A stretch of 64,000 nt of DNA from Octopus vulgaris. Its lineage: Eukaryota. The DNA lies in NCBI GenBank assembly GCA_951406725.2, contig OX597819.1, positions 48,856,001-48,920,000 of the forward strand, given 5' to 3'. The notes below the pieces were generated by a model. It was not told the origin of the DNA and ran no database searches. It was given only the letters and a program-made list of their open reading frames with translations. The position numbers and the translations under genes were made by a program. The first letter of the stretch is position 1, and the number at the start of each line of letters is the position of its first letter. Shown here one piece after another: positions 7,303-50,292 of the stretch.

Positions 7303-8469
7303 TCACCCTTGTTCACCATAGTCCTCCAGGCAATAACGGAGGAATTTAAGACAGGCTGCCCTTGGGAGTTCCTCTATGCTGATGACCTTGTTCTTATATC
7401 TGAATCACTACCAGAACTAGGGAAGAAATTTCTGTTGTGGAAGCAAAGTCTGGAATTGAAGGGCCTTAGTGTCAATTTAGCAAAGCTCAAAGTCTTAGTA
7501 AGTAGGAAAATAAATAAATCTCAAATCCCTCCAGGGTGATGGCCTTGCTTGATATGAAGAGAAAGCATAGGTAGAAATACATAAGAGGTGCAGCAATATT
7601 AGAGGAAGGTTAGCAGAGAAAGGAGTCTTTGTGTGTGGTCAATGTATTGGTACAATAAACACTAGAAATGTACAGGAAACAGACTTCATCAAATACCAGG
7701 GGAGGATACTTAGAAGAACTTGATAGCTTCCATTATCTGGGTGGATGCTCCAAGAGTGGAGGTGGATGCTCTGAGAGTGTAGCTACTAGAATAAAAATAA
7801 GCTGGGCAAATTTCAGAGAGCTTCTATCCTTGTTGGTAACAAAAGGCCTCTCCCTCAGAGTGAAAGGCAGATTGTATGATGCCTGCGTGCGAACAACCAT
7901 GCTACATGGCAGTAAGACATGGGCTGTGACTGAAGAAGATGTGTGAAGGCTTGAAATAAATGAAGCTAGTGTGTTTGCAATGTCAGTGTACATGTGCAAC
8001 AGTATAAACATCTTGAGAGAAAAATTGGCCATAAGAGGCATCATATGTGATGTGCAAGAGAGGCAACCTCACTGGTATGGTCATGTGATGTATAGGGATG
8101 AGGACAGCTGTGTAAAGAAGTGCTGATCTCTAACTGTGGTAGATATAGACCCAGGAAGACATGAAACAAAGTGGTAAAGTAAAGTATGATCTTTGGATGT
8201 TGGGTCTCACATAGATAAGTGACTGAGACCTTTGATGATTTGCTGTACTTGAGAAGACTCATCAAGCCAAGTGAAATTGTAGTCATGGCTAGTGCTGGTG
8301 AAACATAAAAAGCACCAAATATACTCTTGGAGTGGTTGGCATTAGAAAGAGCATCCAGCCATAGAAACCAAGCCAAATCATACTGGAACCTGATACAGCT
8401 CTCACGCTTACCAATCCCAGTCAAACTAACTGTTGCCAGCATGGAAAATGGATGCTGAATGATGATGAT
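7303..8469 (+). mobile_element. 5'-truncated RTE-clade LINE (RT C-terminal part, 3' UTR, (GAT)n tail)
   Basis: LFTIVLQAITEEFKTGCPWEFLYADDLVLI (YADD motif), FHYLG, KGRLYDACVRTTMLHGSKTW; broken by stops and frameshifts; tail ends GATGATGAT. Confidence 0.92.
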
Positions 8470-8496
8470 ATACATACATATGTAATAGAGAGGTGA

Positions 8497-8848
8497 TTAA
8501 TAAACTATTATTTATTAATTTAAAAAATTGACAAACATCCCTTACAGCTGTTTCAATTTCAGGCCTTCAGAAAATTAATTAATTAAGTTAAAAATTATTT
8601 GAAAGTTAAATTTCTTCAGAGGTAGTTTAAGATATACAAAATAGGTGTTGAATTCCTGCATGCTGAGCAAACTTTAACATCAACATGCAGGAATTGAACA
8701 CCTATTTTGTATATCTTAAACTACCTCTGAAAAAATTTGACTTTCAAATAATTTTGATTTAATTAATTAATTTTTTGAAGGTCTGGAATTGAAACAGCTG
8801 TAAGGGATGTTTGTCAATTTTTTAAATTAATAAATAACAATTTATTAA
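8497..8848. repeat. Long inverted repeat (~170-bp arms), Penelope-like terminal palindrome with a degenerate hammerhead motif
   Basis: Left arm ~8497-8665 is the reverse complement of the right arm ~8683-8848; contains CTGAAGG...GAAACAGCTGTA on the minus strand. Confidence 0.75.
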
Positions 8849-8882
8849 ATACTATTCTATTTTCTCATATTTTTATAATAAA

Positions 8883-9277
8883 CTAGCAGTATCGCCCGGC
8901 GTTGCTCGGGTTTGTAAGGGAAATAATTATAGAAGCATTTTTAGAGATGTAAAGTATAATAGCCATCTCAATATGGCTAACCACAAAGGGGGAGGGGGTG
9001 TTACTGTAGCTTTTTACGTTCTGAGATTTAATAATAAATTTTAGAGAGTTACTTCCCTTATATATGTCAAAAATGGATTAAAAATGGGAAAAATTGATGG
9101 TAAATTTTTTTAAAATTGTAGACTCATCGTAGACGCGCGCTAATACTCAGACAGTCTCGATATGAATCACGACTATAAGATACCCGGTTTTGGTTAAACT
9201 GCACCGCAAAATGTGGGAGTAGTTAGGAATCTAAATCGTAGGAGACAGACACACAACCTCACTTTTATATATAAAGA
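8883..9277 (-). mobile_element. Non-autonomous Helitron (inner element, 395 bp)
   Basis: Minus strand begins A|TCTTTATATATAAAAG and ends with hairpin CCCGAGCAACGCCGGG...CTAG|T; no TSD; second copy 10826-11220. Confidence 0.88.
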
Positions 9278-9441
9278 TTTCCTCTATTTACATAATATTG
9301 AGGTCTCTTTCTTTCTTTTGTTATCTTACTGTTTTTACCAATATACATATATATATATATATATAAATATATATATAGTTACAGAGATGTACTTGCATAG
9401 CAAGTGACTTGATCTGAGATCGTGTGCTGGAACGAAAACAG

Positions 9442-9700
9442 TTGCAGCGTTGAAGGTGTTTATAAGCCATTTAAGAAACACACAAAAACCGTTAGATTCA
9501 CTTCAACATTTAAATTTAATTTGTCAAAACATTTTCATCGCTTTGAGACCGCGACCTGTTAGCACGATATTTTTGTCAGTGAACAGGTCGCGGTCTCAAA
9601 GCGACGAAAATATTTTGGCAAATTAAATTTAAATGTTGAAGTGAATGTAACGGTTTTTGTGTGTTTCTTAAATGGCTTACAAACACCTTCCACGCTGCAA
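9442..9700. repeat. Inverted repeat (~119-bp arms), Penelope-like palindrome; duplicated at 11385-11643
   Basis: 9442-9560 is the reverse complement of 9582-9700, separated by a short spacer. Confidence 0.85.
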
Positions 9701-10067
9701 TATATATATACACACATATATATATATGTATGTATGTATGTATGTGTGTATATGTGTATGCATGTATATGTGTGTGTGTGTGCGTGTCTGTGCTTGTGAT
9801 TGTCCTCCACCACTGCTTGACAACGAATGTTGGTTTGTTTACATCCCTGTCACCTAGTGGTTTGACAAAGGAAACAGATAGAATAAGTACAATGCTTAAA
9901 AAAATAAAAGTGGAGTTGATTCATTAAACTACAATTCTTTAAGGCATTGCCCCAGCATGGCCACAGACCAATGGCTGGAAAAAGCAGAAGAATAAAAGAA
10001 TACATGCTCTGCTTTGGTCTTATGTTCAAGGCATGAGAAAGCTTGAGTTTACATGAGAAGGCCTAAC

Positions 10068-10333
10068 AGACCTGGTAGAAACAGCAGCCAAATCTCCCTC
10101 AAATCACACCTTACTGTCTTATGTATGTATATATATATGAGCCAATGAGGGGGACCTCTACATGGTAGCTAGACCTGGTAGAAATAGCAGCCAAATTTCC
10201 CCCAAATCACACCTTACTGTCTTATCTATGTATATATGTATGTATGAGCCTATGAGGGAGACCCCTACATGGCAGCTAGACATGGTAGAAATAGCAGCCA
10301 AATCTCCCTCAAATCACACCTTACTGTCTTATC
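10068..10333 (+). repeat. ~105-bp tandem repeat (about 2.5 units; about 3.5 units in the duplicate at 12001-12373)
   Basis: Repeated AGACCTGGTAGAAATAGCAGCCAAATCTCCCTCAAATCACACCTTACTGTCTTAT. Confidence 0.9.
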
Positions 10334-13300
10334 TTTCTGCTACTTGGATATAGGTGTTATATTCGTCGTAAAAAACTTTCCTGTCACACACTCACGCACA
10401 CGCACACACACACACACACGCACCCTCACACACGCGCACACCCACACACACCCACTCACGTTAGCTTACAATTTTATTTATATATTTGCGTGTGTATGTG
10501 TGGAAAGAGGAAGTGGGAGGCAGAGTGAAAGAATCACTCACTACAGTAAGTCAATTACTTTCATTTTATTCGTTGCCCACTGTGTGTGTGCGTTTGCGTG
10601 TGGTGTAAACCAGACTAAGAAAAGCATTTGACACACACACCAGAATGTGAGTTTTCTGTAAATTTTGCTTAATTGGAGTTTAAATTTTAAAAACTGGACC
10701 TGGCATGACGCGATGCATTGTACTGTTAAAAATGCTAGGTAAATTGTAATTGAAGAAATCCTATATTGTAGATTTGTACAACTCCCAAAGGGAGGCAGAT
10801 AAAATCTGCCTTTTATAATAAGAGACTAGCAGTATCGCCCGGCGTTGCTCGGGTTTGTAAGGGAAATAATTATATAAGCATTTTTAGAGATGTAAAGTAT
10901 AATAGCCATCTCAATATGGCTAACCACAAAGGGGGAGGGGTGTTACTGTAGCTTTTTACGTTCTGAGATTTAATAATAAATTTTAGAGAGTTACTTCCCT
11001 TATATATGTCAAAAATGGATTAAAAATGGGAAAAATTGATGGTAAATTTTTTTTTAAATCGTAGACTCATCGTAGACGCACGCTAATACCCAGACGGTCT
11101 CGATATGAATCACGACTATAAGATACCCGGTTTTGGTTAAACTGCACCGCAAAATGTGGGAGTAGTTAGGAATCTAAATCGTAGGAGACAGACACACAAC
11201 CTCACTTTTATATATAAAGATTTCCTCTATTTACATAATATTGAGGTCTCTTTCTTTCTTTTGTTATCTTACTGTTTTTACCAATATACATATATATATA
11301 TATATATAAATATATATATAGTTACAGAGATGTACTTGCATAGCAAGTGACTTGATCTGAGATCGTGTGCTGGAACGAAAACAGTTGCAGCGTTGAAGGT
11401 GTTTATAAGCCATTTAAGAAACACACAAAAACCGTTAGATTCACTTCAACATTTAAATTTAATTTGTCAAAATATTTTCATCGCTTTGAGACCGCGACCT
11501 GTTAGCACGATATTTTTGTCAGTGAACAGGTCGCGGTCTCAAAGCGACGAAAATATTTTGGCAAATTAAATTTAAATGTTGAAGTGAATGTAACGGTTTT
11601 TGTGTGTTTCTTAAATGGCTTACAAACACCTTCCACGCTGCAATATATATATACACACATATATATATATGTATGTATGTATGTATGTGTGTATATGTGT
11701 ATGCATGTATGTGTGTGTGTGTGCGTGTCTGTGCTTGTGATTGTCCTCCACCACTGCTTGACAACGAATGTTGGTTTGTTTACATCCCTGTCACCTAGTG
11801 GTTTGACAAAGGAAACAGATAGAATAAGTACAATGCTTACAAAAATAAAAGTGGAGTTGATTCATTAAACTACAATTCTTTAAGGCATTGCCCCAGCATG
11901 GCTACAGACCAATGGCTGGAAAAAGCAGAAGAATAAAAGAATACATTCTCTGCTTTGGTCAAGGCATGAGAAAGCTTGAGTTTACATGAGAAGGCCTAAC
12001 AGACCTGGTAGAAACAGCAGCCAAATCTCCCTCAAATCACACCTTACTGTCTTATGTATGTATATATATATGAGCCAATGAGGGGGACCTCTACATGGTA
12101 GCTAGACCTGGTAGAAATAGCAGCCAAATTTCCCCCAAATCACACCTTACTGTCTTATCTATGTATATATGTATGTATGAGCCTATGAGGGAGACCCCTA
12201 CATGGCAGCTAGACCTGGTAGTAATAGCAGCCAAATTTCCCCCAAATCACACCTTACTGTCTTATCTATGTATATATGTATGTATGAGCCTATGAGGGAG
12301 ACCCCTACATGGCAGCTAGACATGGTAGAAATAGCAGCCAAATCTCCCTCAAATCACACCTTACTGTCTTATCTTTCTGCTACTTGGATATAGGTGTTAT
12401 ATTCGTCGTAAAAAACTTTCCTATCACACACTCACGCACACGCACACACACACACACACGCACCCTCACACACACACACACGCGCACACCCACACACACG
12501 TTAGCTTACAATTTTATTTATATATTTGCGTGTGTATGTGTGGAAAGAGGAAGTGGGAAGCAGAGTGAAAGAATCACTCACTACAGTAAGTCAATTACTT
12601 TCATTTTATTCGTTGCCCACTGTGTGTGTGCGTTTGCGTGTGGTGTAAACCAGACTAAGAAAAGCATTTGACACACACACCAGAATGTGAGTTTTCTGTA
12701 AATTTTGCTTAATTGGAGTTTAAATTTTAAAAACTGGACCTGGCATGACGCGATGCATTGTACTCTTAAAACTGCTAGGTAAATTGTAATTGAAGAAATC
12801 CTATATTGTAGATTTGTATAACTCCCAAAGGGAGGCAGATAAAATCTGCCTTTTATAATAAGAGATAAAGATATATAAACCACAGTTTATATAGTTACCT
12901 TGCAGTTGAGTATTAATTGTAATGTTCAATATTCTTTGTATAGGTAACTAACCAGTACTTTCATAGGATTTTGTTATCCCTGAATGAGGTTTGTAACATT
13001 TATTTGTGCTTATATATATATATATATATATGTGTGTATATATACATACATACATAAATATGTATGTATATATATATATATATTTCTGTTTGTGTTAGAG
13101 GTTGGGAAACCAACCAACTAAGGGATAATAACTATCCAATATACTGCTGGTTGTGTACCCAATTATTCATACCCAAGTGCTAGTTATTGCATGACAATCT
13201 CGCAATTGAGTGTTATATATGGGCGGGGGTAAAAAGTGGTTTACCCTTAATTTATATGACAAATAAGAAAATGGAGAGGATACAAAAACGACATACATCA

Positions 13301-13359
13301 GTCAGTAAACATTCTAGTATGCCTATTTATTCCAATGTATTAGAATGTATTAGAAGAAT

Positions 13360-14256
13360 TGAACAGGACGTCCAGCTGAGTTTGATAAGCTCCTTGAGGC
13401 ATTACTTGAAGGAAATCCTGCATTATCAGTTGAAGAATTGGCAATAAAGCTTACTTCAAACCATACAACTGTTCATCGTCATCTTCAACAACTTGGAAAA
13501 TGGGTGCCTCATGAATTGTCCGAAAGCAACTGCAAATCCTGAGTTGACATCTGCTCTTCCCTCCATTCTCGCGAACTCATTTCACCCTTTTTGGATAGAC
13601 TTGTGACTGGTGATGAAAAATGGATCTTCTATTGAAATGTTAAATGTCGTAAACAGTGGCTTGGTAAAAGTGAAAAAGCTCAACCACAACTGAGAAGGGA
13701 ACTTCATGGGAAAAAGGTTCTTCTCTCTGTCTAGTGGGATTGCAAAGGAGTAATTCACTTTGAATTGTTATCACCTAATGCAACAATCAATGCTCAAGTC
13801 CACTGTCAGTAATTAGAGTGTTTGAACCAAGCTTTGAAAAAAAAAAAGACCCGCTTTAGTGAATCGAAAAGGAGTGATGTTTCATCAGGACAATGTGTGG
13901 CCCCACTCTGCAAAGATCACATCACAGAAGATCGAAGAGCTTGGTTGGGAAAAAGTTCCTCATCCACCTTATTCTCCTGACCTCGCTCTTTCAGACTACC
14001 ATTTGTTTCATAGTCTACAGAATCATTTGAGGGACATAACTTTCACAAGCCAGGAGGAGGTTGAAACTGACATTTCAGAGTTCTTCGCTTTGAAACCAAA
14101 AGAGTTTTACATTGATGGGATTAAAAAGCTTGTAAATAGATGGAAGGAAGTCATACATAATCAAGGAAAGTACATTGATGATGAAATTTCAATTAAATAT
14201 AATATTTGATCACTTATTTTCTTTATTCAAAATTTGGACAGAATTTATGGGATGAC

Positions 14257-14260
<4 letters not shown>
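13360..14260 (+). mobile_element. 5'-truncated mariner transposon with 3' TIR; transposase pseudogene
   Basis: WVPHEL, LVTGDEKWIF, FHQDNVWPH, HPPYSPDLALSDYHLF (ORF 13859-14209); 3' TIR TTTATGGGATGACCTGA followed by TA, matching the TIR core of the element at 4450. Confidence 0.93.
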
Positions 14261-14296
<36 letters not shown>

Positions 14297-14298
<2 letters not shown>

Positions 14299-14747
14299 TG
14301 CCAGTGGAGCGTTAAAAGCACCATGCAAGCATGATTGTTGCCAGGGCTGCTGACTGGCTCCTGTGCGGTGGCACGTAAAAAGCACCATTCGAGCATGATC
14401 GTTGCCAGCGTCACGTCACTGTCACATGTGCTGGTAGCACATGAAAAACAACATTTGAGTGTGGTCGTTGCCAGTGCTGCTGGACTGGCTCCCGTGCAGG
14501 TGGCACGTAAAAAACACCTTTGAGCATGGTCGTTGCCTGTACCACCTGACTGGCCCTCGTGCTCATGGCATGTAAAAGCACCCACTACACTCTCGGAGTG
14601 GTTGGCGTTAGGAAGGGCATCCAGCTGTAGAAACTTTGCTAGATCAGATTGGAGCCTGGTGCAGCCTTCTGGCTCGCCAGTCCTCAGTCAAAAACGTCCA
14701 ACCTATGCCAGCATATAGAGCGGACGTTAAACGACGATGATGATGAT
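14297..14747 (+). mobile_element. RTE LINE 3' tail with degenerate ~60-bp repeats
   Basis: Several GGCACGTAAAAAGCACC motifs, GGCGTTAGGAAGGGCATCCAGC, (GAT)n end. Confidence 0.88.
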
Positions 14748-14748
14748 T

Positions 14749-15001
14749 ATGTAATAACCATGTATTACATACACATGTACTAATATTACAGAAAAGAGCA
14801 AAAGATCAGATTGTTAGTAGGTACTAGTTCCTACTGACAATCTGATCTTTTGCTCTTTTCTGTAATATTAGTACATGTGTATGTAATACATAGTTATTAC
14901 ATGTGTATGTATTCTTCTAATACATTGGAATAAATAGACATACTAGAATGTCTACCGGCTGATGTATGTCGTTTCTGTACCCTCTCCATTTTCTTATTTG
15001 C
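14749..15001. repeat. Palindrome centred at ~14826 whose left arm continues at 13258-13359
   Basis: Near-perfect hairpin at 14749-14901; ~14909-15001 is the reverse complement of ~13258-13345. Confidence 0.85.
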
Positions 15002-47360: not shown

Positions 47361-47798
47361 GTATGTATATATATGTATATATATATATGTATATATATAT
47401 ATGTATATATATGTATATATATATATGTATATATATATATGTATATATATATATGTATATATATGTATTTAACATTACACCAAAACACATTAAAACAGAA
47501 ACTGACCCTATAGGGTTCAAGAAGTCTTTGGACAGATTCCTTCAAGAAATCCCGGATAAACCCCCTACACCCGGATATGTCTCTGTAAACAATAACTCTC
47601 TACTTGAGTGGGCCATAGTGCCCAAATTCTGACTTGAAAGACTTCACCAGGTGGTGCTATTAAGTTAGACATGGCCTGGGCCAATAATGGCCGAAACCTA
47701 TCAAAGTATCAAAGTATATATATGTATATATATGTATATATGTATATATATATGTATATATATATATGTATATATATATGTATATATATATGTATATA

Positions 47799-47833
<35 letters not shown>

Positions 47834-47974
47834 ATATATGTATATGTATATGTATATGTATATATGTATGTATATATGTATGTATGTATATATGTATGTA
47901 TATATGTATGTATATATGTATATATATATGTATATGTATATATGTATGTATATATGTATGTATATATGTATGTA

Positions 47975-48007
<33 letters not shown>

Positions 48008-48130
48008 ATATGTATGTATGTATATATGTATGTATGTATGTATATATATATGTATGTATATATATATGTATGTATATATATATGTATGTATATATATATG
48101 TATGTATATATATATGTATGTATATATATA

Positions 48131-48166
<36 letters not shown>

Positions 48167-48896
48167 TATATGTATGTATATATGTATGTATATATGTATA
48201 TATGTATGTATATATGTATGTATATATGTATGTATATATGTATGTATATATGTATGTATATATGTATATATATATGTATGTATATTTGTATATATATATA
48301 TGTATGTATATTTGTATATATATATATGTATGTATATTTGTATATATATATATGTATATATATATGTGTGTATGTATATATTTGTATATATATATATGTA
48401 TATATATATGTGTGTATGTATATATGTATATATATATGTGTGTATGTATATATGTATATATATGTGTATATATGTATATATATATGTGTGTATGTATATA
48501 TGTATATATATGTGTATATATATATGTGTATATATATATATGTATATATATGTGTGTATGTATATATGTATATATGTGTATATATATATATGTATATATA
48601 TGTGTATATATATATATGTGTATGTATATATATATGTGTATATATGTGTATATATATATATGTGTATATATATATGTGTATATATGTGTGTATGTATATG
48701 TGTATATATATATGTGTGTATGTATATGTGTATATATATATGTGCATATATATATGTGTATATATATGTGTGTGTGTATATATATATGTGTGTGTGTATG
48801 TATATATATATGTGTGTGTATGTATATATGTGTGTGTGTATGTATATATATATGTGTATATATATATATATATCTATATGTATATATATGTGTGTG

Positions 48897-48927
<31 letters not shown>

Positions 48928-49034
48928 GTGTGTGTATATATATGTAAATATATATGTATATATATGTGTGTGTATATATATGTAAATATATATGTATATG
49001 TGTGTGTATATATATGTAAATATGTATATATATA

Positions 49035-49075
<41 letters not shown>

Positions 49076-49514
49076 ATATATATGTATGCCAGATCAGATT
49101 GGAACTTGGTGCAGTCATCTGGTTTGCCAGTCCTCAGTCAAATCGTCCAACCCATGCTAGCATGGAAAGCGGACGTTAAAAGATGATGATGATGATAATG
49201 TATATATATGTTTATATATATATGTATATATATATATATATGTATATATGTATATATATGCATATATATATATATATATATATGCATATATATATATATA
49301 TATGCATATATATATATATATATGCATATATATATATATATATGCATATATATGTATATGCATATATATGTATATGCATATATATGTATATGCATATATA
49401 TGTATATGCATATATATATATATGTATATGAATATATATGTATATGCATATATATATGTATATGCATATATATGTATATATATATATGTATATGCATATA
49501 TATGTATATGCATA

Positions 49515-49559
<45 letters not shown>

Positions 49560-49580
49560 GCATATATATGTATATGCATA

Positions 49581-49619
<39 letters not shown>

Positions 49620-49759
49620 GCATATATATGTATATGCATATATATGTATATGCATATATATGTATATGTATGTATATATATGTATATGCATATATATGTA
49701 TATGCATATATATGTATATGTATGTATATATATGTATATGCATATATATGTATATGCAT

Positions 49760-49791
<32 letters not shown>

Positions 49792-50292
49792 GTATACATA
49801 TGTATATAGATATATATATATATATATATCTCATCATCATCATCATCATTTAGCGTCCGCTTTCCATGCTAGCATGGGTTGGACGGTTCAACTGGGGTCT
49901 GTGAAGCTGGAAGGTTTCGTCAAGCCCAGTCAGGTCTGGCAGTGTTTCTACGGCTGGATGCCCTTCCTAACGCCAATATGTATATGTATATATATATATA
50001 TATGTATGCATATGTATATAGATATATATATATATATGTATGTATATATATATATATATATAGATATATATACGTACATGTATGTATATATATATATATA
50101 TATAGATATATATACGTACATGTATGTATATATATATGTATATATATATATAGATATATATACGTACATGTATGTATATATATATATATATATATATATA
50201 CATACACACACACGTTTGTATCTCTAGTATCTCTGCTAGTTTATCTATATATCACCATCATCATCGTTTAGCGTCCGCTTAAACGATGATGT

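Follow-up and report, generated by a model that had tools for sequence, protein, structure and literature searches.

How did two nearly identical DNA units come to lie head to tail in the genome of Octopus vulgaris, with their ends placed exactly on Helitron termini? The locus lies within 64,000 nucleotides of contig OX597819.1 (assembly GCA_951406725.2, positions 48,856,001 to 48,920,000), and this whole stretch of analyzed DNA is the window to which all coordinates refer. The two units named in the original prediction were confirmed by alignment and are arranged as follows:

8883..10825, minus strand: unit 1, 1943 bp, running from the left end of an outer Helitron (HelA) to the right end of an inner one (HelB) and adjoining the left flank
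10826..12865, minus strand: unit 2, 2040 bp, with one additional 107-bp repeat unit
10825..10826, minus strand: head-to-tail junction CTAG/TC, with no host A between and only 1 bp of ambiguity

In a global alignment, the units differ by 22 substitutions, 7 of which fall inside a CA microsatellite. With this microsatellite set aside, the difference amounts to 15 in 1857 aligned sites (0.81%), and the indels between the units measure 1, 1, 2, 8, and 107 bp. Read on the minus strand, the internal junction is CTAG/TC at 10826/10825, a head-to-tail tandem joint between copies of one unit, while the outer ends are A/TC at 12865 (right) and CTAG/T at 8883 (left), with no TSD at either of them. These ends and the junction are as originally predicted. 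A second, inner A/TC is found on the same strand at 9277 in unit 1 and at 11220 in unit 2. By a crude, post hoc estimate, the chance that a random duplication places both breakpoints on Helitron termini is 1e-6 or lower. The features that define HLE1 and HLE2 elements were taken from the accessible part of PMC11417382. The T/T target site listed there for HLE2 (Helitron2/Helentron) is not found, as the sites here are A/T, and short terminal inverted repeats, a further HLE2 feature, were absent among the 25 longest of the 662 inverted pairs in the window.

The segment 10460-11283 (824 of 3,983 bp) was compared with four runs, namely three contig runs and the raw-read run X20. The contig runs contributed 43,153, 15,649, and 22,014 matched contigs, and the listed entries comprise 24 of 81,167 pieces, 18 of 649 loose-end rows, and 15 of 31 joints. 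Run X20 yielded 7 reads from 1,934 million letters and carries no weight either way. Part of 8300-13500 was contained in 19 of 24 runs with shares of sampled words of 0.28-0.71, which may reflect repeat families alone in a stretch that is nearly all repeats, the runs possibly being from other species. Exact-pattern scans returned 0 loci in metagenome contigs (two scans), viral contigs, and prokaryote genomes.

The right end of each unit is provided by the inner element:

8883..9277, minus strand: first copy of HelB, a 395-bp non-autonomous Helitron beginning with TC, with a hairpin at 8895-8910 and CTAG at 8886-8883
10826..11220, minus strand: second copy of HelB, from a high-copy family with a sharp CTAG end and head-to-tail joints to itself; the family ends were read on this copy

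The right end of HelB is marked by loose ends before 10825 in 337, 342, and 359 contigs of the three runs, with flanks that disagree among each other (agreement 0.43-0.44). The contigs match from 10825/10826 onward and are preceded by unrelated A/T-rich sequence. The left boundary was fixed by joints of HelB to itself, and no loose-end row marks it among the 18 of 649 listed. These joints lead from 11217 back to 10823 in 5, 3, and 2 contigs of the three runs, and because they span 395 bp (with 3 ambiguous letters), they place the left end at 11220 and indicate head-to-tail junctions of HelB with itself at other loci. At the present locus, the insertion site has a minus-strand A at 9278 and T at 8882, and the flanks appear to rejoin as a high-copy repeat, family C. 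Of the HLE1 features, HelB shows the TC left end, the right end with stem-loop and CTRR, the A/T insertion without TSD, and multiple copies that agree up to their ends with discordant flanks (right end, 337-359 contigs per run). Its stem-loop is weak, as the terminal hairpin at 8895-8910, located 8 nt before CTAG, reaches -4.5 kcal/mol with z values of -1.06 and -0.64, within the range of shuffled sequences. The predicted hairpin plus CTAG at the unit end is thus correct in position, but its strength does not go beyond that of shuffles. HelB is a real, independent Helitron, and contig ends and self joints both bear out the earlier claim that the CTAG end belongs to a separate 395-bp element with its 5' end at 9277.

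The match breaks off at 10858 in 174, 208, and 196 contigs of the three runs, all of which go on into one and the same other sequence. Since these contigs diverge into a single sequence, the last 33 bp of HelB are common to a second abundant family. The flank consensus next to the HelB CTAG resembles a Helitron left end (compare 9277 with 10825), in agreement with the A/T-rich 3' target bias described for Helraiser (PMC4778049, in part), and left ends resembling that of HelA probably abut a HelB-type terminus at other loci.

The outer element is a left-end fragment only:

10335..10825, minus strand, with a copy at approximately 12375-12865: left-end portion of HelA, its inner border provisional, with a TC start, a hairpin with an 8-bp stem near the start, and a GT microsatellite

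Its TC is preceded by A at 12865/12866, which is an HLE1 feature, and the segment 10460-10825 is high-copy in the contig runs. At the left boundary, the match of two listed X1 contigs ends at 10823 and 10825, and none of the 18 loose-end rows shown (of 649) marks this boundary, which only weakly bears out the sharp TC boundary that the original prediction calls for. A left end at 12871, lying 6 bp more outward, was considered and set aside because the junction uses the equivalent of 12865 and the two contigs stop at 10823-10825. No hairpin-CTRR right end belonging to HelA was found in the locus. A comparable terminal hairpin accompanies none of the other 15 CTRR words that unit 1 has on its minus strand, and no second copy of the 33-bp HelB terminus turned up within the unit or in the rest of the window, the best local score being 22 of 66. 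Both searches support the prediction of an outer element that lacks its own hairpin-CTAG. A Pfam search of 15 of the 71 ORFs in the window detected no RepHel domain, and its one weak match (DDE_3) lies outside the tandem.

Between the two Helitron parts, each unit carries the following cargo, for which no strand was assigned:

9278..9700, copy at 11221-11643: family C, the high-copy repeat interrupted by HelB, then a 259-bp palindrome with arms at 9442-9560 and 9582-9700
9736..10000: dispersed repeat, matched at 8 further places in the window with 66-76% identity
10068..10334: 107-bp tandem repeat in 2.5 copies, with 3.5 copies at 12001-12374

The dispersed repeat may be SINE-like. The period of the tandem repeat was measured as 103-107 bp, which replaces the single value of 105 bp given before; we counted this array as cargo, though it may instead be part of the outer element. 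The palindrome, named Penelope-like in the original prediction, has no Rfam match at gathering score. Altogether, 51 Rfam matches up to an E of 1 were returned, all of them below gathering scores and all hairpin or microsatellite look-alikes. The cargo of the tandem consists of non-coding repeats, with no gene in the 15 of 71 ORFs scanned.

Whether this cargo is local can be read from the sequences on either side of the tandem, again without strand assignment:

8862..8882: left flank, outside the duplication, A/T-rich like HelB targets and matching what naturally precedes the repeat resumed at 9278
12866..12895: right flank, supplying the A of A/TC and without continuation of family C

The segment 11221-11283, next to the HelB left end, belongs to family C. 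Upstream of 11220, 36 contigs of run X1 carry a non-HelB consensus (agreement 0.77), which is the natural upstream part of this family. Aligned with the left flank ending at 8882, this blurred consensus, taken from the shown rows of one of the three contig runs, reaches a score of 29 (~21 bp, two gaps). The same score was reached by 2 of 39,187 A-followed 30-mers of the window and by 1 of 313 target-like ones, and against the same left flank the generic target consensus scores 16 and the HelA end 11. Because the left flank appears to continue family C and the right flank does not, HelB would have split a family C copy at this very locus, and the cargo would be local. The apparent continuation of the split repeat in the left flank is new evidence of this analysis, and the donor likely lay at the present locus. 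Provided that the new copy entered at the canonical A/T, unit 1 is likely the original copy, a donor/copy assignment that we infer.

Both units carry the rarer letter at 10494, 10870, 11009, 11018, and 11098, where the other letter accounts for 61-98% of the depth in the three runs. As they have the minority letters of the HelB region in common, the units are sister copies, although the rarer letters could mark a subfamily or species difference instead. Two independent family insertions were rejected, since the cargo is duplicated as well and the rarer letters are common to both units. With the family majority as outgroup, private changes are found in each unit, for example at 10725 and 10779 in unit 1 and at 11080 in unit 2. 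If the octopus calibration in the available part of PMC13282606 applies (a distance of 0.09 for 25 million years), the pairwise difference of 0.81% corresponds to roughly 1 million years. The duplication is old rather than fresh, because the units have accumulated this divergence plus five indels. The description of the event as caught in situ therefore stands with regard to its likely local origin but not with regard to its having been caught.

We consider it quite probable that a Helitron transposase acting in trans made this head-to-tail duplication, from the HelA left end to the HelB right end and with the donor at the same locus. In the first step, HelB would have inserted at A/T into the local family C repeat, with HelA, whose own right end is missing from the locus, lying ~1.1 kb upstream in the same orientation. 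The transposase would then nick the HelA left end, copy ~1.1 kb of other repeats by read-through, and terminate at the hairpin-CTAG of HelB as the first compatible one, with the ends joined precisely as in Helraiser circles. In a third step, the copy would come to rest beside the donor, and the units would diverge afterwards. Strand transfer into the A/T at the left end of the donor itself is the favored route for the third step and holds about half of the weight of this explanation, because HelB-type ends are followed by left-end-like sequence. An identical sequence would result if a double-stranded circle recombined with the donor by crossover, or if rolling synthesis went through a second lap.

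According to the accessible parts of PMC4778049 and PMC5876387, Helraiser starts at its left end, stops at a hairpin-CTAG, can read through, and forms precise circles, and its targets are A/T-rich with the strongest bias on the 3' side. However, no local hopping was recorded in 701 re-insertions (PMC4778049, in part), which weighs against plain integration in the third step. Terminator bypass by read-through is itself already published (PMC4224331 and PMC2267711, both in part). Of the mechanism first proposed, the use of the HelB right end was retained, but the notion that HelA borrowed the terminator of a different Helitron needs qualification, as the 33-bp terminus is common to another abundant family, and the borrowing may amount to no more than using whichever compatible terminator came next. 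Likewise, the local donor is likely in view of the family C flank, whereas the claimed re-insertion at the donor site is only one of three routes to an identical sequence. The new composite element of the original prediction is a candidate, with its one known copy next to the donor.

A tandem duplication independent of any transposase, through template switching or unequal repair at a microhomology or via an ectopic junction of HelA-like and HelB-like sequence, is unlikely in our assessment. An 11-bp word is common to 8871 and 12851, no more than 15 bp from both ends, and related junctions appear to be abundant in the contigs. The Helitron parts also show more substitutions per site between the units (11 of 810) than the cargo (4 of 1047; Fisher p 0.033, post hoc), and this excess could stem from ectopic conversion. 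However, repair at the microhomology would leave a junction 3 bp shorter than observed. Because the real junction lies 3 bp off the 11-bp register and shares only 1 bp, a junction driven by microhomology in that register was rejected. In addition, the rarer letters common to both units begin just 44 bp from the junction (10870), leaving little room for an ectopic tract.

We regard it as quite unlikely that the tandem is an assembly artefact, in which a locus with a single unit had its two haplotypes placed one behind the other via a Helitron junction existing at other loci. The divergence of 0.81% with indels is compatible with two haplotypes, the exact junction is spanned by no independent read, and junction-like sequence probably exists elsewhere. 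Regarding the latter, two letters are left out at 10821 in 15, 7, and 2 contigs (13%, 4%, and 1% of the depth). Since such a gap requires a match on either side of it, it most likely represents a left end shorter by 2 bp that is joined to CTAG at other loci. Among the 24 of 81,167 pieces listed, no contig bridges the exact CTAG/TC junction with 31 letters on each side. One listed X1 contig, covering 10800-10883, reaches only 26 letters into HelA and departs from the sequence by 4 letters and 3 gap letters; it was set aside as a variant rather than a bridge of this junction. Against an artefact, the window is free of N and a 2.1-kb microsatellite array at 47715-49829 was resolved, which suggests long reads that span 4 kb. 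Moreover, two haplotypes give no reason for ends that coincide to the base with both Helitron termini.

A composite Helitron family that formed elsewhere and arrived here as a rolling-circle dimer or by two successive insertions would agree with the canonical A/T site formed by the outer ends and with the dimers and consecutive insertions described for bat and maize (PMC2267711, in part), but is very unlikely given that the left flank appears to continue family C across HelB (by chance in 1 of 313 controls) and the right flank lacks the rest of this family.

With the read-through duplication by a Helitron transposase as the preferred reading, the locus can be compared with known systems. The available text of PMC4224331 covers a compound Helitron of vespertilionid bats, HelibatN539, as well as the chimeric end-bypass model proposed by Tempel et al. 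2007. As in HelibatN539, the left end of one Helitron and the right end of another lie in the same orientation at the parental locus, and the host DNA between them was copied as a unit. In octopus, the ends of two co-oriented elements enclose host DNA at the likely parental locus and, if the assembly is right, the second unit with its exact termini is the whole span copied end to end. However, the bat product moved away and carried a gene fragment, whereas the only known copy here adjoins the donor and its cargo consists of other repeats. Perfect head-to-tail Helitron junctions were reported for Myotis lucifugus and maize (PMC2267711 and PMC4778049, in part). They share the joint of CTAG to TC without a host A and allow two readings, either a rolling-circle tandem or an insertion at the A/T of a resident left end. 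While the maize pair consists of two unrelated elements, the octopus pair are sister copies of one composite made of two elements.

Helraiser resembles the present case in its precise joint of right to left end, the stop at a hairpin-CTAG, and the A/T-rich 3' target, but its new insertions are not clustered near donors, whereas this locus needs a copy at distance zero. For FoHeli of Fusarium, with self-insertion and multiple 5' termini, the transposase was proposed to initiate at the left end lying furthest out and to terminate at whichever right end comes first (accessible part of PMC5148889). This would give units with two left ends and one right end, like each unit here. However, FoHeli is of the Helitron2 type with terminal inverted repeats and a nested inner element, while the octopus ends are of the Helitron1 type and HelB is embedded in unrelated repeats of the host. 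The full-text literature searched contained no account of two Helitrons duplicated as a composite next to their donor, which is weak evidence with most subscription papers outside the search, and the available parts of PMC6544945 and PMC13565137 hold no precedent for a donor-adjacent composite.

Judged by its sequence, the locus appears to behave as a chimeric end-bypass Helitron capture, which is a known process, and would be a real feature pending confirmation by reads. For bat captures, the parental locus is rarely recoverable, with both ends in one case (PMC4224331, in part). Here, donor, cargo, both ends, and product would lie within 4 kb, which makes the chimeric end-bypass model readable at one site. 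The biological weight of a single old event with a cargo of non-coding repeats and no gene in the ORFs scanned is small. If such tandems were common, Helitrons would contribute to local segmental duplication.

A structure paper on the Helraiser transposase is said to link target choice to left-end binding. Rather speculatively, helitrons might possess a zero-distance route, in which the preferred target resembles their own left end and a read-through copy is transferred into the A/TC of the donor or recombines with it. With this route, and equally doubtful, any two co-oriented Helitron ends would precisely tandem-duplicate the host DNA between them. If true, genomes dense in non-autonomous families with one common right end would have a regular source of kilobase tandem duplications that went unseen in the Helraiser assays. 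As a minor observation on the contig ends, run X2 contained 71 loose ends at 10818, which we read, conjecturally, as chance extension of the matches into A/T-rich targets.

The last 33 bp of HelB (10826-10858), the 395-bp non-autonomous Helitron that supplies the right (CTAG) end of each unit of the tandem duplication, also occurred in a second abundant family in each of the three contig data sets, which suggests that one right end serves several non-autonomous families. Among the joints listed, those in 10884-11077 comprised skips of 97-132 bp to 10981 and returns from 11077 to 10981, and it can be concluded from these joints that there are HelB subfamilies differing by an internal repeat.

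At the opposite end of the units, the left-end portion of the second Helitron, HelA, contains a hairpin in both copies (12833-12851 and 10793-10811) with a stem of 8 bp (z -3.0), beginning 14 nt within the left end. This hairpin is stronger than the terminal hairpin of HelB. Immediately beyond the HelA left end, the right flank carries a further hairpin at 12872-12893 (9-bp stem, z -3.1).

Comparing the two units across 8883-12865, the Helitron parts differed at 11 of 810 positions, whereas the cargo, i.e., the other repeats between HelA and HelB, differed at 4 of 1047 (p 0.033, post hoc). The denser differences in the Helitron parts may stem from CpG decay or from conversion events involving dispersed copies.

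The tandem's left end lies 21 bp from the end of a MITE-like foldback palindrome of approximately 380 bp (8484-8861; 89% self-complementarity). To the right of the tandem, an 86-bp inverted pair (13260-13345 and 14915-15000; 93%) encloses an ORF (13838-14206) whose match to DDE_3 is weak and falls short of the cut-off (E 0.003); 13260-15000 is likely a decayed Tc1/mariner-type element. Within the same inverted pair lies a near-perfect palindrome (14749-14902) with arms of 77 bp and no spacer.
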